Both the position numbers and the translations under genes were made by a program. A DNA stretch of 54,083 bases, taken from positions 1 to 54,083 of IMG/VR virus record IMGVR_UViG_2534682338_000012, one strand, 5' to 3'. A model generated the notes under the pieces. It was not told the DNA's origin. It was given only the letters and a program-made list of their open reading frames with translations, and did no database searches. Every line of letters starts with the position of its first letter. Position 1 is the stretch's first letter. Below are positions 1,445 to 23,606 of the stretch, piece after piece. The stretch comes from a virus. Its lineage: Duplodnaviria; Heunggongvirae; Uroviricota; Caudoviricetes.

Positions 1445-1458
1445 TTTAAATCAATAAG

Positions 1459-4995: not shown

Positions 4996-5060
4996 AATAA
5001 GTCCTCACTATATAAAGATATTCAGTGATGAGATAAATAATCAGTTAATTAAAAACGATA

Positions 5061-5892: not shown

Positions 5893-6327
5893 ATGTCCGG
5901 TAATATCTACACGTTGTACAAATCCCACTGTGAAAATGTTGGAAAGTATCGGGGCATTGAAATCAGTGGGGTAGTGTCATCAGTCGAAATAAGTAAAGTT
6001 GAATCAAGGGCAACATTACTTACTCTTCTGGACCTTGTCTTACATGAGCACCGGAAGAAATTCGGCACTCCCTATAATCAGTTGAATGGGAAAAAGGCTC
6101 TGGTTCACCTTATTCTGATGAAGCATCACTGGATGCCAAAGCAGATTAATGAGATGAAATTTGATGAACTTCTTCTTTCAATTCAGGATGAACTCACGCT
6201 TGATAAAATAAGCGTAACCGCCCAGAAATTTTTAGATTATCGAGACTGGAGATCACAAATTCATCACTTTGATGATTTTGACGAAAATGAATGGGATCCT
6301 AATTTGTCTGCACAATATCTAAAGTAA
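5893..6327 (+). CDS. hypothetical accessory (moron) protein, 144 aa
   Basis: ATG with AAGGAAAAG RBS, AT-rich by eye, opposite orientation to surrounding early genes, preceded by tandem direct repeat. Confidence 0.5.
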   Translation: MSGNIYTLYKSHCENVGKYRGIEISGVVSSVEISKVESRATLLTLLDLVLHEHRKKFGTPYNQLNGKKALVHLILMKHHWMPKQINEMKFDELLLSIQDELTLDKISVTAQKFLDYRDWRSQIHHFDDFDENEWDPNLSAQYLK

Positions 6328-6505
6328 CATCCTGTGATAAAACCGTGATTTCCTGATCCAGTTTTTTTAAGGAGTCTATTGTTTCCTGTCGATAAGACAG
6401 CACTTCACGAAGCTGGTTTATAGCTGCCAGCTTCTTTGTCATCCACTCATAAATTTCCTCATCTGTGTAGCCAGGCGCGACGATTTTGGGTTCTGTTTTG
6501 TGCAT
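6299..6505 (-). CDS. small hypothetical protein (68 aa), first ORF downstream of putative pL
   Basis: Start at MHKTEPK preceded by GAGGAGG RBS; 3' end overlaps the convergent 144-aa gene by ~29 bp. Confidence 0.4.
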   Translation of the reverse strand: MHKTEPKIVAPGYTDEEIYEWMTKKLAAINQLREVLSYRQETIDSLKKLDQEITVLSQDVTLDIVQTN

Positions 6506-6567
6506 TTCACACCTCCTCAAGTTATCAGTTACTTGTTGAAGGGGACCAGATTGTTAAAGAGCTAAGC

Positions 6568-6597
6568 GTCCTGTAGGGCGCTTTTTTGTTGCTAACG
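6568..6597 (+). terminator. putative rho-independent terminator (+ strand)
   Basis: GCGTCC-loop-GGGCGC imperfect stem followed by TTTTTTG. Confidence 0.3.
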
Positions 6598-6664
6598 AAT
6601 CATCCTGGACTTCATATGCCCCAGGCGGCTACTTCGTGGGCGTCCTGCCTGTTCGTTGTTTCTC

Positions 6665-6700
6665 TTGGGTACATTATGTATCTTAAAGGTACATTGTCAA
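6665..6700. promoter_or_regulatory. putative OL operators / pL region
   Basis: GGTACAttaTGTA and AAGGTACA motifs related to the palindromes found between cI and cro. Confidence 0.4.
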
Positions 6701-6703
6701 GTA

Positions 6704-6731
6704 TAAAAAAACCTGCCGAAGCAGGTTCATA
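6704..6731 (-). terminator. rho-independent terminator downstream of cI
   Basis: On minus strand: AACCTGC-TTCG-GCAGGTT stem followed by TTTTTTT. Confidence 0.5.
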
Positions 6732-6739
6732 AACATTGA

Positions 6740-7414
6740 TTAGGCTTTGATTTTGTATCTTCTTGGTTTTCCTGAGAAAATCACTGTACCAATTATAGAG
6801 CAATTACCGTTGATCTTAATGTAAGGCTCAGGCCAGTTTGGGTTTAACGCTTTGAGATAACGCTGTGTCCCATCTTCTATTAACCTTTTGAAGGTGGTTT
6901 CACCTGTATCGTGCATCAATGCAATAACGTCGTCACCGTGGCAGGCAGGTACTTCAGGATCGACAAAAATCATGTCTCCCGGGCGGTACTCATCAATCAT
7001 TGAATCACCTATCACCCGCAAGATATAAGTCATTTCCCCACAGGGTACAGGGCAGGGATACGTTTCTGCTGTGCTCAAATCAACCTCAGAATATCCAACT
7101 TCTTTCCATGCTCCGGCCTGTACCCATGATATGACAGGGACTAATGTGATTTGTTTATTAGTGATTGAAACATCAGGTTTTTTTGTGATGTTCGTTGTCT
7201 GGTGTTCTTGATCGAGCCATCCGACAGGTAGGTCGAAACATTTTTCGATGTGTCGTGCCATGCTGTCACCGATATTTTTAGTAGCACCATCTCCCATAAA
7301 CCTGCTGGTCTGGGTTGGCTCGCGATCAATCATAGTGGCAAAGGAAGAATTCCCGCCAACACCATCTCTCAGTTTTCTGGCGTTAGACCGCCGGATGTCA
7401 TGGATTGTTTTCAT
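6740..7414 (-). CDS. cI: CI-like prophage repressor with LexA-like S24 peptidase domain
   Basis: 224 aa; N-terminal HTH region, C-terminal GDSM serine and downstream Lys typical of S24 autocleavage domain; divergent from cro. Confidence 0.9.
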   Translation of the reverse strand: MKTIHDIRRSNARKLRDGVGGNSSFATMIDREPTQTSRFMGDGATKNIGDSMARHIEKCFDLPVGWLDQEHQTTNITKKPDVSITNKQITLVPVISWVQAGAWKEVGYSEVDLSTAETYPCPVPCGEMTYILRVIGDSMIDEYRPGDMIFVDPEVPACHGDDVIALMHDTGETTFKRLIEDGTQRYLKALNPNWPEPYIKINGNCSIIGTVIFSGKPRRYKIKA

Positions 7415-7427
7415 AACGAAATTAAAA

Positions 7428-7500
7428 CCCTTGTACCGTAAAGGTACAAGTATCTTGAAGGTTCATTTCAATCATGTAATATGTACACCGGAGGTACATA
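7428..7500. promoter_or_regulatory. OR operators with divergent pRM/pR
   Basis: 21-bp perfect palindrome CTTGTACCGTAAAGGTACAAG and second palindrome ATGTAC-N7-GTACAT in the cI-cro intergenic region. Confidence 0.55.
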
Positions 7501-7504
7501 TTGT

Positions 7505-7705
7505 ATGAAAGCGTATTGGGACTCTTTAACCAAAGAACAGCAGGGCGAGTTGGCCGGAAAAGTTGGCTCAACACCAGGCTACTTACGGCTGGTTTTCAAT
7601 GGCTATAAAAAAGCCAGTTTTGTGCTGGCTAAAAAACTTGAGCAATGCACGTCAGGTGCAATTACGAAATCTGACTTAAGACCGGATATCTATCCGAAAG
7701 ATTAG
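7505..7705 (+). CDS. cro: Cro-like repressor
   Basis: ~66 aa from MKAYWDSL, GGAGG RBS, divergent from cI, HTH-like. Confidence 0.7.
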   Translation: MKAYWDSLTKEQQGELAGKVGSTPGYLRLVFNGYKKASFVLAKKLEQCTSGAITKSDLRPDIYPKD

Positions 7706-7736
7706 CAGAACACTTTCAATTTTTAACCACAGAACG

Positions 7737-8300
7737 ATGAGGCTAACCGTGGGTAAGCATCACTGGAAAGTAGAAAAACAGCCTGAGTGGTACGTGAAAG
7801 CTGTCAGAAAAACTATCGCAGCGTTGCCGGGTGGTTACGCTGAAGCTGCTGACTGGCTGGATGTAACAGAGCACGCATTATTTAACCGCCTTCGTGCCGA
7901 TGGCGATCAGATTTTCCCGCTGGGATGGGCAATGATTTTGCAACGTGCTGGTGGAACTCACTTCATTGCTGACGCTGTGGCGCAGTCTGCAAATGGCGTC
8001 TTTGTGTCTCTTCCTGATGTCGAGGATGTGGACAACGCCGATATCAACCAACGCCTGCTGGAAGTCATTGAACAGATCGGCAGTTATTCAAAACAGATTC
8101 GTTCAGCAATTGAAGACGGTGTAGTGGAACCGCATGAGAAGACAGCAATTAACGATGAGCTGTACCTCTCAATTTCGAAGCTGCAGGAGCATGCAGCTCT
8201 GGTCTACAAAATCTTTTGCGTTTCAGAAAGTAGTGACGCCCGCGAGTGTGCAGCTCCGGGCGCCGTGGCGTGTCGTGACTGTGGAGAAACTAACGCATGA
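7737..8300 (+). CDS. CII-like regulatory protein (large CII/CP76-type)
   Basis: 187-aa ORF immediately after cro; family assignment from memory of prophage CII-like proteins, not verified. Confidence 0.5.
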
Positions 8301-8655
8301 ACAGTTTAACAACACACTACCGTCGCTCGCAACTGATTGCGCTTCCTGTACCGGGTGGAAAAGCGAAGGTGGAGTATTGCTATGCAGTAAATGTACCAGG
8401 TGACAGGGAAATTGTAACCCACAGCTTTGCAGAGTGGGCTGTGGGTGATTTCAACCGGCAGAAGGAGACAGTCCTTTGCGACAAGTTAACCGCTGGTTCA
8501 AAGATCACTACGGAGTGCCCGTCAGAGTCATTCGTTGGGAGCCGGAAACACAACGTGTTATCTACCTCCGCGAAGGCTATGAGCATGAGTGCTTCAGCCC
8601 GCTCGAACAGTTTCGTCGTAAATTCAGGGAAATAGAGGTCGGTCATGAGCACTAA
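8297..8655 (+). pseudogene. hypothetical gene apparently split by a frameshift
   Basis: Frame-2 ORF 8297-8635 has a start but a serine-rich low-complexity tail; frame-1 (8449-8655) encodes protein-like ...[50 protein letters not shown]... without a start and ends overlapping the next gene's ATG. Confidence 0.35.
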
Positions 8656-9586
8656 ATTAACCGGCTATGTATGGGATGGTTGCGCTGCATCAGGCATGAA
8701 ATTATCCAGCGTGGCAATTATGGCCCGCCTGGCTGATTTCAGTAATGACGAAGGTGTGTGCTGGCCATCAATTGAAACCATTGCCCGCCAGATTGGCGCG
8801 GGAATGAGTACCGTCAGAACGGCTATCGCACGGCTGGAAGCAGAAGGCTGGTTAACGCGTAAGGCGCGTCGCCAGGGTAACCGCAATGCGTCGAATGTTT
8901 ATCAGCTTAACGTTGCGAAGCTTCAGGCAGCGGCATTTTCTCAACTGTCAGATTCTGACCCGTCAAAATCTGACGCATCAAAATCTGACCCGTCAAAATT
9001 TGATGCGTCGAAATCTGGCAAAAAAGCGGGTTTTCACCCGTCAGAATCTGGCGGGGATCCGTCAGTAAAATCAAAACATGATCCGTCAGATAAAAAAACT
9101 TCTCGTCCGGACGCTTCGCAACCGGACACGCAGACGGCTGAACAGGAGTTTTTAACTCGCCATCCTGATGCGGTTGTATTCAGCCCTAAAAAGCGCCAGT
9201 GGGGAACGCAGGATGATTTGACCTGCGCACAGTGGCTCTGGAAAAAAATCATCGCCCTGTACGAGCAGGCCGCCGAATGTGACGGCGAGGTGGTTCGTCC
9301 CAAAGAACCGAACTGGACAGCCTGGGCAAACGAAATTCGCCTGATGTGTGTGCAGGATGGTCGTACTCATAAACAAATCTGCGAGATGTACAGCCGCGTC
9401 AGTCGCGATCCGTTCTGGTGCCGTAACGTGCTCAGCCCGTCGAAGCTGCGGGAAAAATGGGATGAGCTTTCCCTGCGCTTATCGCCGTCCGTCAGCACGT
9501 ACACCGAAAAACGCGAAGACCCGTACTTCAAAGCCAGTTACGACAACGTGGACTACAGCCAGATCCCGGCAGGATTCAGGGGGTGA
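8645..9586 (+). CDS. replication initiation protein (lambda O-like)
   Basis: 313 aa; N-terminal HTH-like region followed by repeat-encoded DPSKSDASKSDPSKFDASKS linker that coincides with DNA iterons. Confidence 0.8.
   Translation: MSTKLTGYVWDGCAASGMKLSSVAIMARLADFSNDEGVCWPSIETIARQIGAGMSTVRTAIARLEAEGWLTRKARRQGNRNASNVYQLNVAKLQAAAFSQLSDSDPSKSDASKSDPSKFDASKSGKKAGFHPSESGGDPSVKSKHDPSDKKTSRPDASQPDTQTAEQEFLTRHPDAVVFSPKKRQWGTQDDLTCAQWLWKKIIALYEQAAECDGEVVRPKEPNWTAWANEIRLMCVQDGRTHKQICEMYSRVSRDPFWCRNVLSPSKLREKWDELSLRLSPSVSTYTEKREDPYFKASYDNVDYSQIPAGFRG
8945..9100. repeat. origin iterons inside the O-like gene
   Basis: About 8 imperfect direct repeats of CCGTCA(A/G)AATCTGAC-type units followed by an A-rich tract. 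Confidence 0.6.
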
Positions 9587-9588
9587 TC

Positions 9589-10077
9589 ATGAGTCTGTTA
9601 AATGACGTTCAGAAATTCATTGAAGCCCATCCGGGGTGTACTTCCGGAGACATTGCGGATGCTTTTGCAGGTTACTCACGGCAGCGCGTTCTGCAGTCTG
9701 CAAGCAAGTTACGTCAGAGTGGGCGTGTGGCTCACCGTTGTGAAGGAGATACACGCAGACATTTCCCGCGCCTGACTGAGAGAGCGCAGGAGCCGGAACC
9801 ACAACCAGTTCGTGAAACCAGACCTGTGCGCAATTTCTATGTCGGCACTAACGATCCCCGGGTGATTTTGTGCCTGACCCGCCAGGCGGAAGAACTGGAG
9901 TCCAGGGGCTTATACCGTCGTGCTGCAACGGTGTGGATGGCGGCATTCCGTGAAAGCCACTCCCAGCCAGAACGAAACAATTTTCTGGCGCGTCGTGAAC
10001 GGTGTTTACGGAAAAGCAGCAAGCGGGCTGCATCAGGTGAAGAGTGGTATCTGTCAGGGAATTACGTGGGGGCTTAA
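9589..10077 (+). CDS. PerC-like transcriptional regulator
   Basis: Contains AEELESRGLYRRAATVWMAAF resembling the conserved PerC/Pch core; start taken at ATG after GGGGGTG. Confidence 0.45.
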   Translation: MSLLNDVQKFIEAHPGCTSGDIADAFAGYSRQRVLQSASKLRQSGRVAHRCEGDTRRHFPRLTERAQEPEPQPVRETRPVRNFYVGTNDPRVILCLTRQAEELESRGLYRRAATVWMAAFRESHSQPERNNFLARRERCLRKSSKRAASGEEWYLSGNYVGA

Positions 10078-10730
10078 TGAGTAATAAATATTGCCAGGCG
10101 CTGGTGGAACTGCGGAACAAACCAGCCCATGAACTGAAGGAAGTGGGCGATCAGTGGCGCACGCCGGACAACATTTTCTGGGGAATTAACACCCTGTTTG
10201 GCCCGTTTGTTCTGGATCTGTTCACCGACGGTGATAACGCCAAATGTGCCGCGTATTACACGGCGGAAGACAATGCGCTGGCGCATGACTGGTCAGAACG
10301 TCTTGCGGAGCTTAAAGGTGCTGCCTTTGGTAATCCCCCATACAGCCGCGCCAGTCAGCATGAGGGGCAATACATCACTGGCATGCGTTACATAATGAAG
10401 CATGCCAGTTCCATGCGTGATAAAGGCGGTCGCTATGTTTTCCTGATCAAAGCTGCCACCAGCGAAGTGTGGTGGCCGGAAGATGCAGATCATATTGCTT
10501 TTATTCGCGGGCGTATTGGTTTTGAACTGCCTGTCTGGTTTATCCCGAAAGACGAGAAGCAGGTGCCGACAGGCGCTTTCTTCGCTGGTGCTATTGCTGT
10601 TTTCGACAAGACCTGGAAGGGACCGGCAATCAGCTACATCGGGCGCGATGAACTTGAGGCATGTGGTGAGGCGTTTCTGGCGCAGGTTCGCCAGCAGGCG
10701 GAAAAACTGGTCAGGGAGATGGCGGCATGA
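10077..10730 (+). CDS. phage DNA N6-adenine methyltransferase (Dam-type)
   Basis: GNPPY(S) catalytic motif (AAFGNPPYSRA); TAATG overlap with upstream gene. Confidence 0.85.
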   Translation: MSNKYCQALVELRNKPAHELKEVGDQWRTPDNIFWGINTLFGPFVLDLFTDGDNAKCAAYYTAEDNALAHDWSERLAELKGAAFGNPPYSRASQHEGQYITGMRYIMKHASSMRDKGGRYVFLIKAATSEVWWPEDADHIAFIRGRIGFELPVWFIPKDEKQVPTGAFFAGAIAVFDKTWKGPAISYIGRDELEACGEAFLAQVRQQAEKLVREMAA

Positions 10731-11053
10731 CGACGTTAACTCAATGCCAGCAGCAGGTGCTGGATATGCTGATTTCTTATCAGAAAGAACGTGGCTTCCC
10801 GCCAACCAATCAGGAGGTGGCAACCATGCTGGGATACCGTTCGGTGAATGCAGCGGTGGAACATCTTCGCGCACTGGAGAAAAAAGGCGTCATCACGATA
10901 AAGCGTGGTGTGGCCCGGGGGATCACGCTTCATACCGTGGTGAAGGACGACGACAGCGAGGCGGTCGGGATTATCCGCTCACTGCTTGCCGGTGAGGAAA
11001 ACGCCAGGCTGCGTGCAGCCCACTGGTTACATGAGAGGGGCCTGAAAGTATGA
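10727..11053 (+). CDS. LexA N-terminal DNA-binding-domain-like protein (no peptidase domain)
   Basis: 108 aa; LTQCQQQVLDMLISYQKERGFPPTNQEVATMLGYRSVNAAVEHLRALEKKGVI closely parallels the LexA winged-helix domain. Confidence 0.6.
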   Translation: MTTLTQCQQQVLDMLISYQKERGFPPTNQEVATMLGYRSVNAAVEHLRALEKKGVITIKRGVARGITLHTVVKDDDSEAVGIIRSLLAGEENARLRAAHWLHERGLKV

Positions 11054-11439
11054 AGCTAATACTGCCTTTTCCGCCCAGCGTGAACACGTACTGGCGACAC
11101 CCCAACAAAGGGGCGTTTGCAGGTAAGAGCCTGATAAGCGTGGCAGGGCGAAAATTCCAGAGCGCGGCGTGCGCAGCAATAGTTGAGCAGTTACGTCGTC
11201 TGCCGAAACCAACGTCGGCACCTGCTTCAGTGGAGATCGTGTTGTTTCCTCCGGATAACCGGATCCGCGATCTGGACAACTATAACAAGGCGCTGTTTGA
11301 CGCCCTGACCCACGCGGGTGTGTGGGAAGACGACAGTCAGGTGAAAAGAATGCTGGTGGAGTGGGGACCGGTTATCCCGGAGGGGAAGGTCGAGATCACT
11401 ATCAGTAAGTACGAGAAAACGGCGGGTGCAGCCGCCTGA
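11050..11439 (+). CDS. rusA: RusA Holliday junction resolvase
   Basis: MKLILPFPPSVNTYWR... conserved RusA N-terminus and acidic residues. Confidence 0.9.
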   Translation: MKLILPFPPSVNTYWRHPNKGAFAGKSLISVAGRKFQSAACAAIVEQLRRLPKPTSAPASVEIVLFPPDNRIRDLDNYNKALFDALTHAGVWEDDSQVKRMLVEWGPVIPEGKVEITISKYEKTAGAAA

Positions 11440-11459
11440 TCAAGAGGAGAAACGAAGTA

Positions 11460-12267
11460 TGAATAATCTGATGGTCATTGATGGTATTGAAGTTCGTCGT
11501 GATGCTTATGGGCGTTACAGCCTGAACGATCTGCACAGGGCAGCCGGGGGAGAACAAAAAACCGCCCGAAATACTGGCTCTCCAATAAGCAAACCTGTGA
11601 ATTGATTGAACAACTTTTCACCGAGGGTGGAATTCCGCCTCTGGAACAAAATCAACCAGTTAGCGTCATTAATGGCGGAAATAACCAGGGGACGTATGTC
11701 TGCAAAGAACTGGTGTATGCCTATGCAATGTGGATCAGCCCGTCATTCCATCTGAAGGTGATCCGTACTTTCGATATGGTAACCAGCGCACCGGAAAAAT
11801 TATCCGGGCAGGCTGCTGACAAGATGCAGGCTGGAGTGATTCTGCTGGACTTTATGCGCAGGGAGTTAAACCTGTCTAACTCTTCAGTGCTTGGGGCCTG
11901 TCAGAAACTCCAGGAGGCTGTTGGCTTACCGAATCTGGCACCGCGCTATGCCATTGATGCTCCTGCTGACGCGCCTGATGGCTCAAGTCGCCCGACACTG
12001 TCGCTGAGTGCACTGCTGAAACAGTATGGTATCCGCCTTACGGCTAATCAGGCATATCACCAGATGGCGAAGCTGGGGATCGTCGAACAGCGCGAACGAT
12101 ACAGCCGTACAGCGATTAACAACATCAAAAAATTCTGGTCGCTGACGGCGAAAGGCTGCATGTTCGGCAAGAACATCACCAGTCCTGCAAATCCGCGCGA
12201 GACGCAGCCGCACTTCTTCGAATCCCGATTCCCTGAGCTGTTAAAGCTGCTCGATACCGTTCATTGA
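11460..12267 (+). pseudogene. KilA-N domain protein interrupted by frameshift in an A6 run
   Basis: ATG with AAGAGGAGA RBS encodes MNNLMVIDGIEVRRDAYGRYSLNDLHRAAGGEQK then stops; the +1 frame continues ...NRPKYWLSNKQTCELIEQLFTEGG into the 221-aa ORF 11602-12267. Confidence 0.5.
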
Positions 12268-12268
12268 G

Positions 12269-13264
12269 GTGACCGTGAGAGCACTACTGACCCCTGAAAT
12301 TGCCCCGCGTATGGGGATCGTATTGTTCAGACCAGGTTCAGAGCTGATGCCCCTGTTTATGCAGGGGCGTGTCCTGCTGGAGCCTGAGCCGGAACGTTAT
12401 TCATCTTTCGCCAGTGGTGCCGTTCCGGCGGCATCACAACCGCTGGCGGATGATCCTGCCGTTCGGGCCGTATTCCGCAATGAGGCAGTGATCCGTCGTG
12501 CTGGTGGCGTGGAATGTCTTGAAAGCTGGTTACTTCGTGAAAAGGGCTGCCAGTGGCCTCATTCCGACTGGCACAGCGAGAACATGACCACAATGCGACA
12601 CGCTCCGGGCGCAATCCGTCTGTGCTGGCACTGCGATAACCAGCTGCGCGATCAGTTCACGGAACGGCTGGAATCAATGGCAACGGATAACTGTGCCCGC
12701 TGGGTGTTGTCTGTTGTGCGTCGGGATCTCGGTTTTGATGACAGTCACGTTGTGACAATGCCGGAACTGTGCTGGTGGCTGGTTCGTAATGACCTGGCGG
12801 GTGCCTTGCCGGAAAGTGCAGCCCGTAAGGCACTGAGATTACCGAAGCCTGTTGTGCCGTCTGTCACCCGGGAAAGTGACCTTGTTCCTTCGGTTCCTGC
12901 CATCAGCATCATCCAGGATAAAGTGAAAAAGGTGCTGGCGCTGAAAGTGGATCCGGAGTCGCCGGAGTCTTTTATGTTACGCCCAAAACGTCGCCGCTGG
13001 GTTAACGAAAAGTACACGCGCTGGGTTAAGACACAGCCGTGTGCATGTTGTGGAAAGCCTGCTGATGATCCCCACCACCTGATAGGCCACGGTCAGAGGG
13101 GAATGGGTACAAAAGCGCATGACCTCTTTGTGTTGCCTTTGTGCAGAAAGCATCACGACGAGCTGCATGCGGATACCGTGGCATTTGAAGAGAAGTATGG
13201 CTCCCAGTTGGAGCTGATATTTCGTTTTATCGATCGTGCGCTGGCAATAGGCGTACTGGCGTAA
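12269..13264 (+). CDS. DUF968-family prophage protein (HNH-like C-terminus)
   Basis: 331 aa, GTG start; C-terminal CxxCG...HHL...GMGTKAHD...CRKHHDELH motif cluster. Confidence 0.55.
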   Translation: MTVRALLTPEIAPRMGIVLFRPGSELMPLFMQGRVLLEPEPERYSSFASGAVPAASQPLADDPAVRAVFRNEAVIRRAGGVECLESWLLREKGCQWPHSDWHSENMTTMRHAPGAIRLCWHCDNQLRDQFTERLESMATDNCARWVLSVVRRDLGFDDSHVVTMPELCWWLVRNDLAGALPESAARKALRLPKPVVPSVTRESDLVPSVPAISIIQDKVKKVLALKVDPESPESFMLRPKRRRWVNEKYTRWVKTQPCACCGKPADDPHHLIGHGQRGMGTKAHDLFVLPLCRKHHDELHADTVAFEEKYGSQLELIFRFIDRALAIGVLA

Positions 13265-13277
13265 GTGGAGAACGAGC

Positions 13278-14030
13278 ATGAACCTTGAAGCTTTACCAAA
13301 ATATTACTCCCCAAAATCTCCAAAATTGAGCGATGACGCACCGGCGACAGGCTCGGGTGGTTTAACAATTACAGATGTGATGGCTGCGCAGGGGATGGTG
13401 CAGTCGAAAGCACCGCTTGGGTTTGCCTTATTCCTGGCAAAAGTTGGTGTTCAGGATCCTCAGTTTGCGATTGAAGGTCTGCTCAATTACGCGATGGCAC
13501 TGGATAACCCGACATTGAACAAATTGAGTGAAGAAACCCGGCTACAGATCATTCCTTACCTTGTGAATTTTGCCTTTGCTGATTATTCCAGGTCTGCGGC
13601 AAGTAAGGCTCGCTGTGAGCGTTGTGCTGGTACTGGATTTCATAATGTATTGCGCGAAGTGGTGAAACACTCCAGAAGCGGGGAGTCTGTTATCAAGGAA
13701 GAGTGGGTGAAGGAACTATGTCAGCATTGTCATGGTAAGGGAGAAGTCAGCACAGCGTGCAGAGGGTGTAAGGGTAAAGGTATTGTCCTGGATGAAAAAA
13801 GAACCCGGCTTCATGGTACGCCTGTTTATAAGATTTGTGGGCGTTGCAATGGAAAACGGTTTAGTCGTTTACCAACCACACTGGCGCGGCATCATGTCCA
13901 GAAACTGGTACCAGACCTGACGGATTATCAGTGGTACAAAGGATATGCAGATGTCATTGATAAACTGGTTACAAAGTGCTGGCAGGAGGAATCTTACGCT
14001 GAAGCACAATTGAGAAAGGTGACAAGATAA
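13278..14030 (+). CDS. late-gene antiterminator Q-like protein with zinc-finger repeats
   Basis: 250 aa with CxxCxGxG repeats (CERCAGTG, CQHCHGKG, CRGCKGKG, CGRCNGKR); positioned immediately upstream of late promoter/lysis region. Confidence 0.55.
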   Translation: MNLEALPKYYSPKSPKLSDDAPATGSGGLTITDVMAAQGMVQSKAPLGFALFLAKVGVQDPQFAIEGLLNYAMALDNPTLNKLSEETRLQIIPYLVNFAFADYSRSAASKARCERCAGTGFHNVLREVVKHSRSGESVIKEEWVKELCQHCHGKGEVSTACRGCKGKGIVLDEKRTRLHGTPVYKICGRCNGKRFSRLPTTLARHHVQKLVPDLTDYQWYKGYADVIDKLVTKCWQEESYAEAQLRKVTR

Positions 14031-14060
14031 GTGATCTTCGCCGAAAATGGTGACATGATG

Positions 14061-14089
14061 CTTGCAATTTTCAAAAAACATGGATAAGA
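14061..14089 (+). promoter_or_regulatory. putative late promoter pR'
   Basis: TTGCAA -35, 17-bp spacer, TAAGAT -10 downstream of Q-like gene. Confidence 0.3.
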
Positions 14090-14232
14090 TTTTCTCAACG
14101 ATGGGCTTTATGTATCTGCCGTTGATAACCTTCAAGAACTCGCCATTGAGCGGGTTTTTTATTGTGTAAAAACAGAATGACGGTATTAATTAGTAATATA
14201 ATTATTCGACCATACAACTAGGGGTCGAAAAA

Positions 14233-15018
14233 ATGTATGTTTTTGAGTTAATCAAGCCAGGCAGTAATCTTAAGTTTGAAAACAGAGAGTTAGAATGGAC
14301 GTTTAATAACTTATTATCCCATTTAGAAACTGCATTTTATGATGCTAATGTAGCATTAAATTTATTCGAACAGGAAAGAACTAAGAATAACAGTAAATTC
14401 GATAATATTTCTCAGACATGGCAAGCTGATGTACAGAAACGACAAGCACTGGAAATGCTGGTTCGTAAAGAGTTTGGTTATCAACCTTATGAATATTCAG
14501 AACAGGTTTTTTCAGAGGTCGAGCTACGTCTAAAAAGAGAAAAATGGAATAACGGTGAATATCCGTTGGCTCATCAACACAGATTGATCTTCTTACATGC
14601 AAAATCATTTCTCTACGCTTTGGATGCTATTGATAAATTTTTAAAGGTAATTTCAAAAGAAAATGGCGCGCCAGAGAACATTAAAAAATTGCATGAACAG
14701 CTTTCTAAAGACTTTCCGGATTTAAGAAAGGTAAGGAATTCAGCTCAACACATGGAAGACAGAGTTCGTGGGCTTGGTGCAGAGAAAGAACCAAAGCCAA
14801 TAAAACTCAAACCTGTAAATAATATTCATGTTGTTGCACCTCAGGGGGCATTGATGTTGAATAACTTATTCGGAACTAAATTTGGGTGCACTATGGCTGA
14901 TGGCTATTATGGTGAAGTAGATATTTCGACAGAGTCTTTGGCAAAGTTGCAAAATTTAATCCAAAAAGTTTTTAATTCCTTCAGTTGGGAAGGACCAAAG
15001 CAACACCTTCCCCGATAA
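14233..15018 (+). CDS. hypothetical moron protein (261 aa) at the Q-holin locus
   Basis: AT-rich ORF with own downstream terminator; no recognisable domain. Confidence 0.6.
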   Translation: MYVFELIKPGSNLKFENRELEWTFNNLLSHLETAFYDANVALNLFEQERTKNNSKFDNISQTWQADVQKRQALEMLVRKEFGYQPYEYSEQVFSEVELRLKREKWNNGEYPLAHQHRLIFLHAKSFLYALDAIDKFLKVISKENGAPENIKKLHEQLSKDFPDLRKVRNSAQHMEDRVRGLGAEKEPKPIKLKPVNNIHVVAPQGALMLNNLFGTKFGCTMADGYYGEVDISTESLAKLQNLIQKVFNSFSWEGPKQHLPR

Positions 15019-15035
15019 CATTTTCTTTTTTATTG

Positions 15036-15068
15036 AAAGCCGCCAAATAATTGGCGGCTTTTTTATTT
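15036..15068 (+). terminator. rho-independent terminator
   Basis: AAAGCCGCC-AAATAATT-GGCGGCTTT stem-loop followed by TTTTTATTT. Confidence 0.7.
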
Positions 15069-15107
15069 CACAGTACCCGCAAATATCGCGAGGTGAGAGA
15101 TGACGAA

Positions 15108-15434
15108 ATGCCTCATAACCCAAATACCTGGCTGGACTTGGTCCAGAGCTGGTGGCGTGGAGACACACCGCTGGGCGCAGTGATTATGTCGATTGTTATG
15201 GCTGGTTTACGTATCGCCTATTTTGGCGGTGGTGGCGGCTGGAAGCGAAAAACACTCGAAATTCTACTCTGTGGCGCTCTGACGCTGACTTTTGCATCCG
15301 CTCTTGAGTATGTCGGATGGCCTAAATCACTTTCTGTTGCCATTGGTGGTGGGGTGGGGCTGATCGGTGTCGATGCTATTCGTGGGGCTGCAATGCGAGT
15401 AATCGGTAACAAATTTGGTGGCTCTAAGGAGTAA
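15108..15434 (+). CDS. holin
   Basis: Small protein with hydrophobic transmembrane stretches (LGAVIMSIVMAGLRIAYFGGGGG, LLCGALTLTFASALEYV) and charged C-terminus, directly upstream of endolysin. Confidence 0.75.
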   Translation: MPHNPNTWLDLVQSWWRGDTPLGAVIMSIVMAGLRIAYFGGGGGWKRKTLEILLCGALTLTFASALEYVGWPKSLSVAIGGGVGLIGVDAIRGAAMRVIGNKFGGSKE

Positions 15435-15437
15435 TTT

Positions 15438-15914
15438 ATGCAGGTACTAAATTCCCAGCGTAAAGCTTTCCTTGATATGGTGGCATGGTCAGAAGGAACG
15501 GATAACGGGCGACAACCGACACGTAACCACGGTTATGACGTTATTGTTGGTGGTGAACTGTTTACTGATTACTCCGATCATCCTCGCAAACTTGTCACGC
15601 TAAACTCCAAACTCAAATCAACAGCCGCCGGACGTTACCAGCTTCTTTCACGTTGGTGGGATGCTTACCGTAAACAGCTTGGTTTGAAAGACTTCTCCCC
15701 CAAAAGCCAGGACGCTGTGGCATTGCAGCAGATTAAAGAACGTGGCGCTTTACCGATGATTGATCGTGGTGATATTCGTCAGGCTATCGACCGTTGCAGC
15801 AATATCTGGGCTTCGTTGCCGGGCGCTGGTTACGGTCAGTATGAACATAAAATTGGTGACCTGATTGCCAGGTTTAAAGAGGTTGGCGGGGTGGTAAATG
15901 AAGTTGAGCTATAA
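15438..15914 (+). CDS. R: endolysin, lambda R-like lytic transglycosylase
   Basis: 158 aa, near-identical to lambda R over most of its length (QRKAFLDM.AWSEGTDNGRQ.TRNHGYDVIVGGELFTDYSDHPRKLVTLN). Confidence 0.95.
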   Translation: MQVLNSQRKAFLDMVAWSEGTDNGRQPTRNHGYDVIVGGELFTDYSDHPRKLVTLNSKLKSTAAGRYQLLSRWWDAYRKQLGLKDFSPKSQDAVALQQIKERGALPMIDRGDIRQAIDRCSNIWASLPGAGYGQYEHKIGDLIARFKEVGGVVNEVEL

Positions 15915-16431: not shown

Positions 16432-17295
16432 ATGGAAAGAGGTGTGGTATTTAGTGCATGCGAATTACTTAAAACCGAGGATGGAAAAGGCATCCGTACA
16501 GGTAAATGGATTAGTCAATTAGAAATAAACTATCTATGTCTTTATTGGGATAAACTAGTTTCACCCACTAATAATATTATACATACAGCATTAAATAACG
16601 AGGATGAATTAGAAAAATGTGGATTGCTAACCAGACCTGTATATAGACATCATGGTTGTTTTGATGGCCAATATATGGCTGATTTTTATGCTGAAACTCA
16701 TGCCAAAACAATAGATATACTTAGGCATGCGGATTCTTCTGTCGATTGGCGCATGCATTTTTTAAGTGACCAAATAAACTTGGTGCCTGAATTATCTAGA
16801 ACCTCAGAAGTGATACGTTTTGAGCTAGCAAATTTATTACCCGTTCCCACAGAAGATGTGCACCTACATGATATTCTTGATTTCAAGGAAAGAAGAAAAC
16901 CTGAATTAATCGCTTTACATGAATATCTTGATGAGCTTTACTTGGAAATAAAACGTTCTGGTGATATCAATCTTCAGAAAGCAAAAGCTCTTTCTAATCT
17001 TAAACAAGCAATAAAGGATATTGAACGCTTAAATTGTGAAGTGTGGAAAAGTCCAATAAAATTTAGCATCTCTACTTCCTTTGAGTTCGATTTTTCACAA
17101 ATATTTACTCTGGCGGGAACTGTTTTATCTATGTCAGTAGATTATCCTTATAATGTTATTGGAGGGGTAAGTAGTTTTGCTTATTTTTTGGGAGGATGCA
17201 TAAAAATAAAGCCACAATTTCAACAAGTGTTATCATTAGGTAATGATAAATTAGTTTACATAAGCAAAGGAAAATCGGAGGGTATTATTTCCTGA
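16432..17295 (+). CDS. hypothetical moron protein (287 aa) between lysis and packaging modules
   Basis: AGGAG RBS, AT-rich by eye, no recognisable domain. Confidence 0.6.
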   Translation: MERGVVFSACELLKTEDGKGIRTGKWISQLEINYLCLYWDKLVSPTNNIIHTALNNEDELEKCGLLTRPVYRHHGCFDGQYMADFYAETHAKTIDILRHADSSVDWRMHFLSDQINLVPELSRTSEVIRFELANLLPVPTEDVHLHDILDFKERRKPELIALHEYLDELYLEIKRSGDINLQKAKALSNLKQAIKDIERLNCEVWKSPIKFSISTSFEFDFSQIFTLAGTVLSMSVDYPYNVIGGVSSFAYFLGGCIKIKPQFQQVLSLGNDKLVYISKGKSEGIIS

Positions 17296-17847: not shown

Positions 17848-18342
17848 ATGGCTGGAACGGCGGGGCGTTCCGGGCGTCGCCCCAAGCCAACGGCGCGCAA
17901 GGCGCTGGCCGGAAACCCCGGCAAGCGAGCCCTGAATAAAGATGAACCTGTTTTTACGCCCATCAAAGGTGTTGAGCCACCGGAGTGGTTCGCAGAAGAA
18001 AATCTCCCTCTCGCCACGATCATGTGGCAACTGACAACCAAAGAACTCTGCGGTCAGGGCCTGTTGTGCGTGACTGACCTCGCGGTGCTTGAGCGGTGGT
18101 GCGTGGCCTATGAGTTCTGGCGACGTGCCGTGAAAAATATTGCCATACAGGGCAACACCATCACCGGTGCAATGGGCGGCAGGGTCAAAAATCCGGAGCT
18201 GACCGCCAAAAAAGAACAGGAGTCCGAGATGAGCAGCACGGGGGCAATGCTCGGACTCGACCCCAGCAGCCGCCAGCGTCTGATTGGCCTGGCGGGGCAG
18301 AAGAAAGCCACTAACCCGTTTCTGAAAATCATCGAGTCATGA
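17848..18342 (+). CDS. terminase small subunit
   Basis: Positioned between HNH and TerL; start at MAGTAG after CAGGAG. Confidence 0.65.
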
Positions 18343-20072
18343 GCCGGAAATCTTACCCCAACGTAAATGCTGCCAATCAGTATGCCCGTGATGTTGTGCG
18401 CGGAAAGATTGTGGCCTGCCAGTTTGTGATTCAGGCCTGCCAGCGCCATCTTGATGACCTGATGGCGGAAAAAAGTAAGTCGTTTCGTTACCGCTTCGAC
18501 AAGGACCTGGCTGAACGGGCCGCCAAATTTATTCAGCTGTTGCCGCACACCAAGGGTGAGTGGGCATTCAAGAGGATGCCCATCACGCTGGAGCCGTGGC
18601 AGCTATTTGTGGTCTGCTGTGCGTTTGGCTGGGTCAATAAAGGGTCCCGGCTGCGCCGCTTCCGGGAGGTGTATACCGAAATCCCCCGTAAGAACGGCAA
18701 ATCGGCAATCTCTGCCGGTGTTGCCCTGTATTGTTTTGCCTGTGATAACGAGTTTGGCGCGGAAGTGTATTCCGGTGCCACGACAGAGAAACAGGCGTGG
18801 GAAGTCTTTCGCCCGGCGCGACTGATGTGTAAACGCACACCCATGCTGACGGAAGCGTTCGGGATTGAGGTTAACGCCTCAAACATGAATCGTCCGGAGG
18901 ATGGCGCGCGGTTTGAACCGCTGATCGGTAACCCCGGTGATGGTTCATCACCCCACTGTGCGGTGGTGGATGAATATCACGAGCACGCCACCGATGCGCT
19001 TTACACCACGATGCTTACCGGGATGGGGGCGCGACGTCAGCCATTGATGTGGGCCATTACTACTGCCGGGTACAACATTGAGGGGCCGTGCTACGACAAG
19101 CGACGGGAAGTTATCGAGATGCTCAACGGGTCGGTACCCAACGATGAACTGTTCGGGATCATCTATACCGTTGACGAAGGCGATGACTGGACCGACCCGC
19201 AGGTGCTGGAAAAAGCTAACCCGAATATTGGCGTGTCGGTTTATCGCGAATTTTTGTTAAGTCAGCAGCAGCGTGCGAAAAATAACGCCCGTCTGGCAAA
19301 CGTCTTTAAAACAAAACACCTCAATATCTGGGTGTCGGCGCGTTCGGCGTATTTCAACCTGGTGAGCTGGCAGAGCTGCGAGGATAAATCACTGACCCTT
19401 GAGCAGTTCGAGGGGCAGCCGTGCATTCTGGCCTTTGACCTGGCCCGTAAGCTGGATATGAACAGCATGGCGCGACTTTATACCCGCGAGATTGACGGTA
19501 AAACGCATTACTACAGTGTGGCCCCGCGTTTCTGGGTACCGTATGACACGGTGTACAGCGTCGAGAAAAATGAAGATCGCCGGACAGCCGAACGCTTTCA
19601 GAAATGGGTGGAAATGGGCGTCCTGACCGTTACCGATGGTGCAGAGGTGGATTATCGCTACATCCTCGAAGAGGCCAAAGCGGCGAACAAAATCAGCCCG
19701 GTCAGCGAGTCACCCATCGACCCCTTCGGGGCGACCGGGCTGTCACATGACCTTGCTGATGAAGACCTGAATCCCATCACCATCATTCAGAACTACACCA
19801 ACATGTCCGACCCGATGAAAGAGCTGGAAGCGGCAATTGAATCGGGGCGCTTTCATCATGATGGCAATCCCATCATGACCTGGTGTATCGGCAACGTGGT
19901 CGGCAAAACCATTCCGGGTAACGATGATGTGGTGAAGCCCGTCAAAGAGCAGGCGGAAAACAAAATCGATGGTGCAGTTGCGCTGATTATGGCGGTTGGC
20001 AGAGCCATGCTGTATGAGAAAGAAGACACGCTGTCCGACCACATTGAGTCCTACGGGATCCGCTCGCTTTAA
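18339..20072 (+). CDS. terminase large subunit
   Basis: 577 aa; ATPase N-terminal region and nuclease C-terminal region (acidic DxxD/DEYHE motifs), canonical position. Confidence 0.9.
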
Positions 20073-20083
20073 CTGAGGTAATT

Positions 20084-20266
20084 ATGATCATGCTGATTCT
20101 CGCGCCTCTGGTGGGCGTGCTGGGGGTGCTTTTGCTGGCGTATGGTGCCTGGCTGATTTATCCCCCGGCGGGGTTTGTTGTTGCCGGGGCGTTGTGCCTG
20201 TTCTGGTCGTGGCTGGTGGCGCGATATCTCGACCGTACACAGTCGTCTGTCGGCGGAGGTAAATAG
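20084..20266 (+). CDS. small membrane protein
   Basis: 60-aa ORF, two hydrophobic helices, fills gap between terminase and portal. Confidence 0.4.
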
Positions 20267-21507
20267 TGTTCTTTTCGGGATTATTTCAACGAAAAAGTGA
20301 CGCACCGGTGACCACGCCAGCAGAGCTGGCGGATGCTATCGGGTTGTCCTACGACACCTATACCGGAAAGCAGATCAGCAGCCAGCGGGCCATGCGACTG
20401 ACGGCGGTTTTTTCCTGTGTCAGGGTGCTGGCGGAGTCGGTCGGGATGTTGCCCTGCAACCTGTATCACCTGAACGGCAGCCTGAAGCAGAGAGCCACTG
20501 GCGAACGTCTGCATAAGCTGATCTCCACGCATCCCAATGGCTATATGACGCCGCAGGAGTTCTGGGAGCTGGTGGTCACCTGTCTGTGCCTGCGGGGAAA
20601 CTTTTACGCCTACAAAGTGAAAGCATTTGGCGAAGTGGCTGAACTGCTGCCCGTCGATCCCGGCTGTGTGGTACCGAAGCTTAACAGTAGCTGGGAGCCG
20701 GTCTATCAGGTCACATTCCCGGATGGCTCCACGGATGTACTGAGCCAGGAAGATATCTGGCATGTGCGCACGCTGACGCTGGACGGACTGGTGGGGCTGA
20801 ATCCCATCGCCTATGCCCGCGAGGCAATATCGCTGGCGGCAGCGACCGAAGAGCACGGGGCCAGACTGTTCAGCAATGGCGCGGTGACGTCGGGTGTGTT
20901 GCGTACAGAGCAGACGCTGTCAGATCAGGCTTATGAGCGCCTGAAGAAAGATTTTGAGGAGCGTCACACCGGGCTTGGCAATGCTCACCGCCCGATGATC
21001 CTTGAGATGGGGCTGGACTGGAAGTCGATGGCGCTGAACGCCGAGGACAGCCAGTTCCTGGAAACCCGCAAGTTTCAGCTTGAAGAAATCTGTCGTCTGT
21101 TCCGGGTGCCATTGCACATGGTGCAGAACACCGATCGCGCCACCTTCAACAATATCGAAGAGCTGGGGCTGGGATTTATCAACTATTCACTGGTGCCGTA
21201 TCTGACCCGCATTGAGCAGCGGATCAACACCGGACTGGTACGAAAAAGTAAGCAGGGCGTTTATTACGCCAAATTTAACGCCGGGGCCTTACTGCGCGGG
21301 GATATGAAGTCCCGTTTTGAAGCCTACGCTACCGGGATCAATTGGGGAATTTACTCTCCCAATGACTGCCGCGACCTGGAAGATATGAATCCGCGTCCCG
21401 GTGGTGATGTCTATCTCACACCGATGAACATGACCACGAAACCCTCCGATGGCAGTAAAGCCGGTAAGCAGAAGGATAACGCCAATGCAGACGAAACAAC
21501 GTCTTGA
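20266..21507 (+). CDS. portal protein (HK97 family)
   Basis: 413 aa, position and sequence character typical of HK97-type portals. Confidence 0.85.
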   Translation: MFFSGLFQRKSDAPVTTPAELADAIGLSYDTYTGKQISSQRAMRLTAVFSCVRVLAESVGMLPCNLYHLNGSLKQRATGERLHKLISTHPNGYMTPQEFWELVVTCLCLRGNFYAYKVKAFGEVAELLPVDPGCVVPKLNSSWEPVYQVTFPDGSTDVLSQEDIWHVRTLTLDGLVGLNPIAYAREAISLAAATEEHGARLFSNGAVTSGVLRTEQTLSDQAYERLKKDFEERHTGLGNAHRPMILEMGLDWKSMALNAEDSQFLETRKFQLEEICRLFRVPLHMVQNTDRATFNNIEELGLGFINYSLVPYLTRIEQRINTGLVRKSKQGVYYAKFNAGALLRGDMKSRFEAYATGINWGIYSPNDCRDLEDMNPRPGGDVYLTPMNMTTKPSDGSKAGKQKDNANADETTS

Positions 21508-22135
21508 TGTACCGCTGAGTCTGAAATCTGTCAGTGACTCCGGTGAGTTTGAAGGGTATGGCTCCGTCTTTGGTGTAAAGGACAGCCACGATGATGTGGT
21601 GATGTCAGGGGCATTTGCCGCTTCCCTGCGGGCGTGGAGTGACAGAAAAGCGTTACCTGCGCTGCTCTGGCAGCACCGCATGGATGAACCCATCGGTGTT
21701 TACACCGAAATGAAGGAAGACGATGTCGGGCTTTACGTCAGGGGACGGTTGCTTATTGATGATGATCCCCTCGCAAAACGCGCACATGCACACATGAAGG
21801 CCGGTTCGTTAACCGGCCTTTCTATTGGGTACGTCCTGAAAGACTGGGAATACGACCGGACGAAAGAAGCCTTTCTGCTGAAAGAAATCGACCTCTGGGA
21901 AGTCAGTCTGGTGACGTTCCCGTCTAACGACGAGGCGCGGATCAGCGACGTCAAGAACGCGCTGGCCCGCGGGGAAATCCCCGAACAGAAAAAAATCGAA
22001 AGAGTCCTGCGTGATGTCGGACTCTCCCGTACCCAGGCCAAAGCATTCATGGCCGGGGGCTATGGCGCACTGTCCCTGCGCGACGCTGAGGATGTGAGCT
22101 CTGCACTGAATGCACTGAAAAATCTGAACTTCTAA
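21485..22135 (+). CDS. prohead protease (HK97 family)
   Basis: Between portal and capsid; start at MQTKQRL, overlapping portal 3' end. Confidence 0.75.
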   Translation: MQTKQRLDVPLSLKSVSDSGEFEGYGSVFGVKDSHDDVVMSGAFAASLRAWSDRKALPALLWQHRMDEPIGVYTEMKEDDVGLYVRGRLLIDDDPLAKRAHAHMKAGSLTGLSIGYVLKDWEYDRTKEAFLLKEIDLWEVSLVTFPSNDEARISDVKNALARGEIPEQKKIERVLRDVGLSRTQAKAFMAGGYGALSLRDAEDVSSALNALKNLNF

Positions 22136-22149
22136 TCAGGAGAAATACG

Positions 22150-23355
22150 ATGGCGGTAGATATTAAAGATGTCGAACAGGTCGCGCAGGAGCTGCAGCAG
22201 AAGTTTGACGACTTCAAAGCAAAGAACGACAAGCGCGTGGATGCGATTGAGCAGGAAAAAGGCAAGCTTGCCGGGCAGGTGGAAACCCTGAACGGGAAAC
22301 TCAGCGAGCTGGAAAACCTCAAAAGCGATCTTGAAAAAGAGCTGCTTGAGCTGAAACGTCCGGCAGGTGGTGCGCAAAATAAACTGGCCACCGAGCATAA
22401 AGAAGCGTTTGTGGGCTTCCTGCGTAAAGGCCGTGAAGATGGTCTGCGCGATCTGGAGCGCAAGGCATTACAGGTGGGCACCGATGAAGACGGCGGCTAT
22501 GCCGTGCCGGAAGCACTGGATCGCAACATTCTCACCCTGCTGAAAGATGAAGTGGTGATGCGCCAGGAAGCCACGGTGATCACCGTTGGTGGTTCCGACT
22601 ACAAAAAACTGGTGAATCTGGGCGGCACGGCTTCCGGATGGGTTGGCGAGACTGACGCGCGCTCCCAGACTGCCACCTCAAAACTGGGCCTGATTGAACC
22701 TTTCATGGGGGAAATCTACGGTAACCCGCAGGCCACCCAGAAAATGCTGGATGATGCCTTTTTCAACGTGGAAGCATGGATCAACAGCGAGCTGGCAACC
22801 GAATTTGCCGAACAGGAAGAAATTGCCTTTACCACCGGCGATGGTACCAAGAAGCCGAAAGGGTTCCTGGCGTATGAATCCACGGATGAAACCGATAAGG
22901 TCCGGGCGTTCGGCAAACTTCAGCATATTGTATCCGGCGACGCGACGGCGGTGACCGCAGACGCCATTATCAAACTGATTTACACGCTGCGTAAGGCACA
23001 CCGCACCGGCGCGAAGTTCATGATGAACAACAATAGCCTGTTTGCCATCCGTCTGCTGAAAGACAGCGAGGGTAACTATCTGTGGCGTCCGGGGCTGGAG
23101 CTGGGGCAGCCGTCCTCTCTGGCGGGTTACGGTATCGCTGAAAACGAACAGATGCCGGATATCGCCGCTGATGCGAAAGCCATTGCATTTGGTAACTTCA
23201 AACGGGGTTACACCATCGTTGACCGTATCGGCACCCGCATTCTGCGTGACCCGTACACCAATAAACCGTTTGTCGGTTTTTATACCACCAAACGCACCGG
23301 CGGCATGCTGGTCGATTCGCAGGCCATCAAACTGCTGAAGATTGCAGTGGCGTAA
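22150..23355 (+). CDS. major capsid protein (HK97 fold) with N-terminal coiled-coil delta domain
   Basis: 401 aa; coiled-coil first ~100 aa then conserved HK97-type capsid region. Confidence 0.9.
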   Translation: MAVDIKDVEQVAQELQQKFDDFKAKNDKRVDAIEQEKGKLAGQVETLNGKLSELENLKSDLEKELLELKRPAGGAQNKLATEHKEAFVGFLRKGREDGLRDLERKALQVGTDEDGGYAVPEALDRNILTLLKDEVVMRQEATVITVGGSDYKKLVNLGGTASGWVGETDARSQTATSKLGLIEPFMGEIYGNPQATQKMLDDAFFNVEAWINSELATEFAEQEEIAFTTGDGTKKPKGFLAYESTDETDKVRAFGKLQHIVSGDATAVTADAIIKLIYTLRKAHRTGAKFMMNNNSLFAIRLLKDSEGNYLWRPGLELGQPSSLAGYGIAENEQMPDIAADAKAIAFGNFKRGYTIVDRIGTRILRDPYTNKPFVGFYTTKRTGGMLVDSQAIKLLKIAVA

Positions 23356-23403
23356 TCACTCAGGGGCGCGGAACCGCGCCCCTGTTCTGACGGGTGAAGA
23401 ATC

Positions 23404-23604: not shown

Positions 23605-23606
23605 GT

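Follow-up and report, generated by a model that had tools for sequence, protein, structure and literature searches.

A stand-alone gene with a HEPN-type signature at the Q-holin junction of an SfV-like Escherichia coli prophage, a possible anti-phage effector

In Stx phages, the Shiga toxin genes stand between the gene of the late antiterminator Q and the holin gene. An SfV-like lambdoid prophage of Escherichia coli carries an unrelated gene of 261 codons at the same place, which raises the question of what this gene does there. We studied it in the IMG/VR virus record IMGVR_UViG_2534682338_000012 (Caudoviricetes), whose positions 1 to 54,083, i.e. the whole stretch of 54,083 nucleotides (nt), are called the window here. 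The open reading frame (ORF) lies at 14233-15018 on the plus strand, starts with ATG and encodes a protein of 261 amino acids (aa). In RefSeq it is WP_000289222.1, named 'hypothetical protein', and in PHROG it is matched by phrog_5322 alone (E 4.7e-140), where its function is uncharacterised. Our favoured reading, to which we give a probability of about 0.4, is that the protein is a new single-gene, HEPN-like effector of abortive infection or superinfection exclusion. For a defence role of some kind, whatever its chemistry, the odds are slightly better than even.

The HEPN-type signature and the weight of the evidence

HEPN proteins are metal-independent endoribonucleases and are usually dimers with a composite site. 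Their fold is an all-alpha, up-down four-helix core that carries the motif where helix 3 ends, and the site consists of Rx4-6H, with a polar residue (N, D or H) after the arginine, and of an upstream acidic residue, typically as Ex3[KR], in helix 2 (PMC3710099). Both elements can be recognised in the 261-aa protein. The Rx4H core, R168-H173, is encoded at 14734-14751 within the codons L164-R177 (14722-14763, plus strand; LRKVRNSAQHMEDR), and the arginine is followed by the polar residue N or D at position 169. Upstream of it, D131-x3-K135 (14623-14637, plus strand) resembles the Ex3[KR] pair, with aspartate replacing glutamate.

Residue conservation was followed in 72 diverse family members which are 32-60% identical to the query. 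R168 and H173 are each kept in 70 of the 72 and N or D at position 169 in 71, while R177 is found in 69. The residues at positions 175 and 176 are acidic in 71 and 70 members, respectively. The upstream pair is retained in fewer sequences (D131 in 64, K or R at position 135 in 61). The motif FPNLRYVRNSIAHFEDR is also present in a protein of Marinitoga phage MPV1, with the pattern LRxVRNSxAHxEDR.

An AlphaFold2 model of the 261-aa protein, based on an alignment of 48 sequences, is confident, with a pLDDT of 90.2 and a pTM of 0.84. It contains helices at residues 18-81, 89-106, 112-142, 149-160, 164-172, 174-178 and 233-249, and a beta-rich stretch at about 185-230 between the last two of them. 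In the model, the D131/K135 pair lies within the long helix 112-142 and the Rx4H motif at the end of helix 164-172. Judged by sequence, the protein bears a HEPN-type signature and probably works like a HEPN RNase, and we tend, by a small degree, to accept HEPN-like chemistry.

The protein is predicted to be soluble, with a mass of 30.4 kDa, a pI of 8.4 and no transmembrane (TM) segment (maximum KD19 0.94). That the ORF is a real gene follows from more than 375 close homologues, 804 cluster representatives and many invariant residues: the family comprises 375 matches in a collection clustered at 90% identity and 804 representatives at 50% identity. Nearly all members are stand-alone proteins of 250-270 aa which match end to end. 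One 261-aa member of the 90%-identity cluster to which our protein belongs was found on 915 contigs, and 23 of the 5426 complete E. coli genomes carry WP_000289222.1 itself. A distant relative, recognised by hhalign with a probability of 97%, is the 204-aa protein gp37 of Marinitoga phage MPV1, a phage of Thermotogae.

An earlier note, made from the sequence alone, had seen in the ORF no similarity to Stx subunits or to any recognisable domain. This agrees with our searches, since the 261-aa protein found nothing beyond chance in Pfam, NCBIfam, PADLOC or the PDB sequences. Likewise, nothing on phrog_5322 or WP_000289222 was found in the main texts of the literature. Two candidate identities were tried and rejected, in part on composition. 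A Stx- or AB5-like toxin has no support in Pfam or PDB matches to the subunits, and the N-terminus is not hydrophobic (the same KD19 maximum applies). A lysis accessory protein (antiholin, spanin or LysC-type) is not compatible with the lack of a TM segment and of a signal peptide, nor with a family that is also found on plasmids, in integrons and on islands.

The single-gene HEPN proteins of abortive infection, namely AbiU2, AbiD/AbiF (Abi_2), AbiV and AbiJ, share with the family that they are stand-alone, of about 200-340 aa, located on mobile elements and equipped with R-[ND]-x3-H. AbiU2 and Abi_2 are, moreover, neighbours of some family members, on a Pseudomonas island and on Acinetobacter plasmids. 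In contrast, no profile similarity to AbiU2 or Abi_2 is detectable (hhalign 0.2-0.5%, DUF4145 included), and according to the model the present family differs from the HEPN Abi proteins by an extra long N-terminal helix and by its beta-rich C-terminal part. The integron-cassette HEPN family (PDB 3jrt, Vpc_cass2; Anantharaman et al. 2013) is also among the closest systems. Identity with 'Bxe_C0808, in operon with AbiU2' of Aravind was considered and rejected, since AbiU2 is adjacent in one locus only and viral contigs with AbiU2 lack the family gene.

The family has already been flagged by a published predictor. DefensePredictor (Science 2026, PMC13092281) made predictions for 3,000 E. coli genomes. 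In its Table S10, the cluster WP_000289222.1, represented there by the 261-aa protein WP_023277813.1, is entered as a 'Putative novel defense gene'. The mean log-odds of this cluster is 10.06 (standard deviation 0.83, range 8.42-10.65), and the stringent cut-off of the method is a log-odds of 4 (PMC13092281). It is thus the same cluster as here, listed among the putative novel defence genes without an assigned domain or mechanism. The cluster appears in Table S10 alone and is absent from Table S6, which holds the units selected for screening (PMC13092281). Hence, it was flagged computationally and not experimentally screened. Motif strings of the family were not found among the sequences of the validated DefensePredictor systems.

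Several observations weigh against a HEPN-like defence effector. Pfam scans of 48 and of 72 family members at loose E-values gave no HEPN match. The hhalign probabilities against the family were 0.3% for AbiU2 (alignment of 47 sequences), 0.5% for DUF4145 and 0.2% for Abi_2; these profile-profile tests cover three HEPN families, and the alignments of DUF4145 and Abi_2 are thin; HEPN family alignments seeded from IMG/VR had too little diversity. Two family profiles found only chance matches among the PDB sequences (for example choline kinase, SRP54 and 2ap3). A detectable profile relationship to an established HEPN family was therefore seen neither in Pfam nor with hhalign nor in the PDB. As the homology tests failed or were indecisive, we do not file the protein as an established member of the superfamily. 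In PADLOC-DB 2.0, the protein matched 0 families at E <= 1. The validation rate of DefensePredictor is 45% overall, rising with log-odds, and the HHblits and Foldseek fields of the cluster are empty (PMC13092281). Since the predictor makes use of gene context, its support is not independent of the argument from context. As to that context, known defence genes form a small minority of the neighbours, most of which are unrelated, with GNAT acetyltransferases as the commonest, and many of the 47 species-level loci are housekeeping contexts. Finally, the -35 element of the candidate promoter of the gene is poor in this window.

The failure of every homology test against HEPN families would also be explained if the Rx4H motif were convergent or coincidental and the protein had a different, unrecognised activity, for example as an enzyme targeting nucleotides or NAD, as a binding protein or as a sensor. 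Foldseek searches against PDB and BFVD gave no match at E <= 0.001 and hence no significant fold match. Moreover, polar residues are conserved outside the HEPN-like motifs (E175, D176, R177, D223, E228 and D230), and the conserved beta-rich C-terminal part has no counterpart in HEPN proteins. We nevertheless consider this explanation unlikely, although it has to be taken seriously, because R-[ND]-x3-H at the end of a helix, an upstream D-x3-[KR] and a helical bundle together fit the sequence side of the HEPN definition.

Occurrence of the family in phages and other mobile elements

Members of the family were found in Enterobacteriaceae, Vibrio, Aeromonas, Acinetobacter, Pseudomonas, Idiomarina, Burkholderiales and Neisseriales, further in metagenome-assembled genomes of delta- and epsilon-proteobacteria and in one of an acidobacterium. 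Among the IMG/VR contigs with a relative, 39 of 47 have a recognisable Q gene upstream and a holin or endolysin gene downstream, and one more has lysis genes only. In these contigs, Q usually lies 150-240 nt upstream. This placement at the junction of Q and the lysis genes was seen with at least four Q families and at least four holin families. In Klebsiella prophages, the gene stands between a Q of PF06323, PF06530 or PF03589 and a PF16080 holin, in Enterobacter between a Q of the DUF1133 type and a PF16931 holin, and in Leclercia between a PF03589 Q and a PF16931 holin. At the Klebsiella loci, gene calling puts a small putative ORF (51-86 aa; 7634-7896, minus strand) on the other strand in the gap from Q to the cassette, and the E. 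coli window lacks an equivalent. One IMG/VR contig of 33.6 kb (IMGVR_UViG_2541047937_000003) contains two identical Q-cassette-holin segments in inverted orientation, at 8841-15623 and 18008-24790, which is possibly a palindromic misassembly.

AbiU2 itself can occupy this slot. In IMGVR_UViG_2885933516_000001, a Pseudomonas-like viral contig, the region 3493-5910 has an AbiU2 gene between a Q gene (PF06530) and a KilA-N gene plus a lambda-type holin gene. Its product is 64% identical to the PF18734 protein of locus L074 in our collection and has the LRHQRLAHR motif of the Pfam family. The arrangement is therefore one that HEPN Abi genes use. The viral contigs which bear AbiU2 do not carry the 261-aa family gene. 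In Marinitoga phage MPV1, the gene of gp37 (2411-3025 of the locus) is located between tape-measure and tail genes, a different moron position in a host lineage that is very far removed.

Outside phages, the gene is solitary cargo on elements of other kinds. Vibrio parahaemolyticus has it as a single-gene integron cassette between 2 of 12 attC-like repeats of about 125 nt. The 12 repeats are spaced by 480-930 nt over positions 1-9000 of the locus, which makes it a chromosomal integron array, and the cassettes of this array include, besides the family member, an HEPN_AbiV gene, GNAT acetyltransferases and a glyoxalase. On Acinetobacter Rep3 plasmids the gene adjoins Abi_2 and a RelE/Xre toxin-antitoxin pair. 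The Aeromonas copy is part of an integrase/VapE island, where a SIR2-like gene is its neighbour. Upstream of the homologue in the Aeromonas caviae island, at 5860-6000, there is an attC-like sequence of the Vibrio type (CATAACAAACTGTTTAAGAGTGATTCGCAACG...), a remnant which hints at the capture of an integron cassette by a different element. On the Pseudomonas island, the gene is directly 3' of HEPN_AbiU2, with an AAA_21/RloB pair close by. A PIN/Phd pair is close to the gene in a Limnobacter islet, and in Chromobacterium it is a lone insertion among genes of sugar utilisation.

The 132 nearest neighbours in the 47 species-level loci comprise a handful of known defence proteins, i.e. a CBASS cyclase with effectors, DRT9, a type II methyltransferase and mad2. 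The gene is hence best described as an autonomous, highly mobile one-gene unit, whose association with defence loci is real and only partial.

Integron cassettes and small plasmids with toxin-antitoxin pairs beside the gene would also suit a selfish toxin of stabilisation or stress dormancy, that is, a HEPN-like RNase which arrests growth for the retention of the element or for survival of stress and which protects from phages only secondarily. Such a toxin could use the same catalytic signature, and a role of this kind was proposed by Anantharaman et al. for integron-cassette HEPN proteins (PMC3710099). However, no conserved partner gene, neither an antitoxin nor a second component, was found across 49 species-level loci, and a solitary toxin that is made constitutively would be hard to maintain. 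In addition, the strict placement in the prophage late operon, as seen in Enterobacteriaceae, is unusual for addiction modules. We therefore regard a selfish toxin as rather improbable.

The cassette between tR' and the holin gene

A moron, in the sense of Hendrix and Juhala, is an extra transcription unit between backbone genes. The gene had been taken for such a moron in the earlier note, which placed it, as an AT-rich ORF, between a Q-like antiterminator and a holin. This description has held in all three respects. The upstream gene (13278-14030, plus strand) belongs to the backbone and encodes a Q-type late-gene antiterminator (PF03589, E 2.3e-54; phrog_127, E 1.7e-108). The downstream backbone gene (15108-15434, plus strand) encodes a holin S of the lambda family (PF05106, E 3.3e-25; a 108-aa holin in RefSeq), and it is followed by the endolysin and Rz genes. 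The GC content of the ORF is 0.357 (0.305 at third codon positions), compared with 0.469 in Q, 0.489 in the holin-endolysin-Rz block and 0.492 in the whole window.

The limits of the insertion can be read from related phages. The segment with Q and the terminator tR' shares about 95% identity with SfV, mEp460, Ayreon and several Stx2c phages, and only up to 14160, after which the phages diverge. In BLASTN comparison with SfV, the match ends at 14160, just past the T tract of tR', and restarts at 15056 inside the downstream terminator. The cargo is therefore 14161-15055 (plus strand), with each junction at a terminator. This cassette has a GC content of 0.351 and contains the promoter region, the ORF and the terminator's 5' half. 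The cargo of SfV at this site is orf47 and orf48, and in its RefSeq copy (NC_003444.1) a DNA methyltransferase is listed under the same match. In sister prophages the gene is missing at the site or replaced by other cargo. The insertion thus lies between genes that are adjacent or differently loaded in related phages, and its base composition (0.35 against 0.47-0.49) is unlike that of the surrounding phage.

Hence, the cassette resembles the other morons of the Q-S junction, stx in Stx phages and orf47 and orf48/methyltransferase in SfV, in its insertion point after tR' and before the holin gene, in the backbone with its Q of about 95% identity, in the bracketing of the cargo by terminators and in its deviant base composition. 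In contrast to stx and the SfV methyltransferase, the cargo itself is unrelated, lacks a signal peptide and is a member of a family which also occurs outside phages. The terminators at both junctions may serve as anchors of recombination or homology for cargo swaps at this hotspot.

The intrinsic terminator in the gap between the ORF and the holin gene lies at 15035-15068 (plus strand). Its stem of 12 bp (15035-15062) encloses a loop of 4 nt, and the U tract extends to about 15068. Its folding energy of -18.7 kcal/mol compares with a mean of -5.3 in shuffled sequences (z -5.84), and none of 200 shuffles reaches an equally good fold. The earlier claim that the gene has a strong terminator of its own is right about the strength and only partly about the ownership. 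A hairpin is found at the same place 3' of the gene in relatives from Leclercia, Klebsiella and Enterobacter as well as on an Acinetobacter plasmid, so that a terminator goes with the gene even in diverged relatives. Its 3' half, from 15056, is shared with SfV and thus common with the backbone, which makes the element a marker of the junction between cargo and backbone and not purely the property of the gene. A start of the holin gene at TTG 15051 was considered and rejected in favour of 15108, the most likely start, which gives 108 aa as in RefSeq. With this start, the terminator is wholly intergenic.

Just 3' of Q, a second intrinsic terminator is found at 14134-14165 (plus strand), with a 10-bp stem, a T tract and its hairpin at 14134-14159. 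Its equivalent in SfV, which follows Q there, is annotated as a terminator, i.e. tR'. With -11 kcal/mol and a z of -2.9, it is weaker than the terminator before the holin gene, and it is conserved upstream of the cassette in the Leclercia and Enterobacter relatives. The late promoter must fall somewhere between about 14019 and 14100. Two weak candidates may be considered, GTGACA-18-GAAAAT at 14019-14048 and, found by eye, TTGCAA-17-TAAGAT at 14062-14090.

Within the cassette, a candidate sigma-70 promoter lies at 14173-14202 (plus strand), with CAGAAT at 14173-14178, a spacer of 18 nt and TATAAT at 14197-14202. It is the best sigma-70 match 5' of the ORF, yet it reaches only 8 of 12 positions. 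A Shine-Dalgarno-like AGGGG can be read at 14219-14223 (plus strand), 9 nt 5' of the ATG, and relatives retain GGGG or GGGA at this position. We compared the sequences upstream of the gene in relatives with a protein identity of 57-100% and a DNA identity of about 65%. Some 19 of these sequences, distinct and diverged from one another, show a perfect TATAAT 35-36 nt 5' of the ATG, and in the window the distance is 36 nt. Relatives have TAGATA, TGGATT or TGGAAA 18 nt before the TATAAT, the first two being better -35 elements, and the tR' hairpin lies further upstream. In cassettes of the Klebsiella type, an extended -10 stands at -38 in the form TGATATGAT or TGATATAAT. Such a conserved footprint is hard to explain unless it is functional, and we infer from it that the cassette promoter is probably active. 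The expectation that the gene is expressed on induction, and possibly in lysogens, would fit this anatomy, with a position downstream of tR' in the late operon and a positionally conserved -10 element.

The constant position at the junction of Q and the lysis genes, irrespective of the Q or holin family, and the co-orientation with the late operon downstream of tR' would likewise be accounted for by a late function of the phage itself, exerted with the lysis genes under Q. Shut-off of host or early mRNA, timing of lysis, counter-defence or exclusion of competitors on induction only could be such functions. This is not the pattern that we see in the family as a whole. Close members in integrons, on Rep3 plasmids, on islands and as insertions among metabolic genes have no late operon around them, a conserved promoter of its own and bracketing terminators are typical of a moron, and sister prophages do without the gene or carry other cargo at the site. 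Unlike lysis accessories, the protein has neither a TM segment nor a signal peptide. We consider a late phage function to be as improbable as a selfish toxin.

The position may also be functional in another way. The protein could be the non-HEPN founder of a new type of single-protein immunity with a new fold, made of a helical bundle and a beta subdomain, whose almost fixed place right behind pR'-tR' in enterobacterial prophages would make the gene a tripwire. It would be switched on by the Q protein of a superinfecting lambdoid phage in trans, or by abortive induction, and would couple the sensing of late transcription to suicide. We regard this possibility as a long shot. Very improbable, finally, is a host-directed virulence factor released at lysis as an analogue of Shiga toxin, since the position of stx in Stx phages and the Q allele shared with Stx2c phages are set against the lack of a signal peptide, the lack of similarity to AB5 or other toxins and a family that is often met with in free-living bacteria of marine, soil and freshwater origin and includes a protein of a Thermotogae phage.

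Two further features of the window should be mentioned. A second AT-rich moron (GC 0.34), at 16432-17295 (plus strand), separates Rz from the HNH endonuclease/terminase genes. Its product is a 287-aa DUF6236 protein (PF19749, E 1.3e-31; phrog_23128; WP_000439452.1) without a PADLOC match, which 32 of the 5426 complete E. coli genomes encode; in sister prophages the site has a DUF2441 gene instead. The cluster WP_000439452.1 is also a putative novel defence gene of DefensePredictor, with a log-odds of 7.53, and a different DUF6236 homologue, WP_097421955.1, was screened in that study, with FALSE in the field 'defensive' (PMC13092281). Near the left end of the window, a tRNA-Thr gene (CGT, 1369-1444) adjoins a minus-strand ORF of 387 aa (1459-2622), probably the integrase. 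The tRNA-Thr is presumably the attachment site of this SfV-like prophage, and SfV uses the same tRNA.

Proposed mode of action and significance

The favoured reading, a HEPN-like effector of abortive infection or superinfection exclusion, can be put together as follows. The cassette would be a unit of sigma-70 promoter, 261-aa ORF and intrinsic terminator, placed behind tR' and ahead of the holin gene. Transcription of the gene in the lysogen would be weak and start at the promoter of the cassette, and the effector would stay inactive until infection, perhaps through its beta-rich C-terminal part, which might act as a regulator or sensor. Upon infection, RNA would be cleaved by a metal-independent site in the helical domain, formed by D131/K135 and R168/N169/H173. 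When the prophage is induced, the polymerase modified by Q would pass tR' and over-express the gene together with the lysis genes, at a time when the cell is already committed to lysis.

The kind of element is familiar, namely a moron of the Q-S junction that is most likely a single-gene effector of the Abi type, and its flagging by DefensePredictor makes the finding less surprising. The family itself is undescribed and has no Pfam model. If our reading is true, a widespread single-gene family, with 804 clusters in Proteobacteria and beyond and with a relative in a Thermotogae phage, would join the anti-phage repertoire, and it would represent a new, highly diverged branch of HEPN RNases with an unusual added subdomain. 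Moreover, the junction of Q and the lysis genes, which is best known for stx, has been loaded repeatedly with the same small, defence-like cassette of about 0.9 kb, including its own candidate promoter and a terminator. Since this cassette recurs there across at least four Q and at least four holin families, the junction is a practical site to mine for immunity genes.

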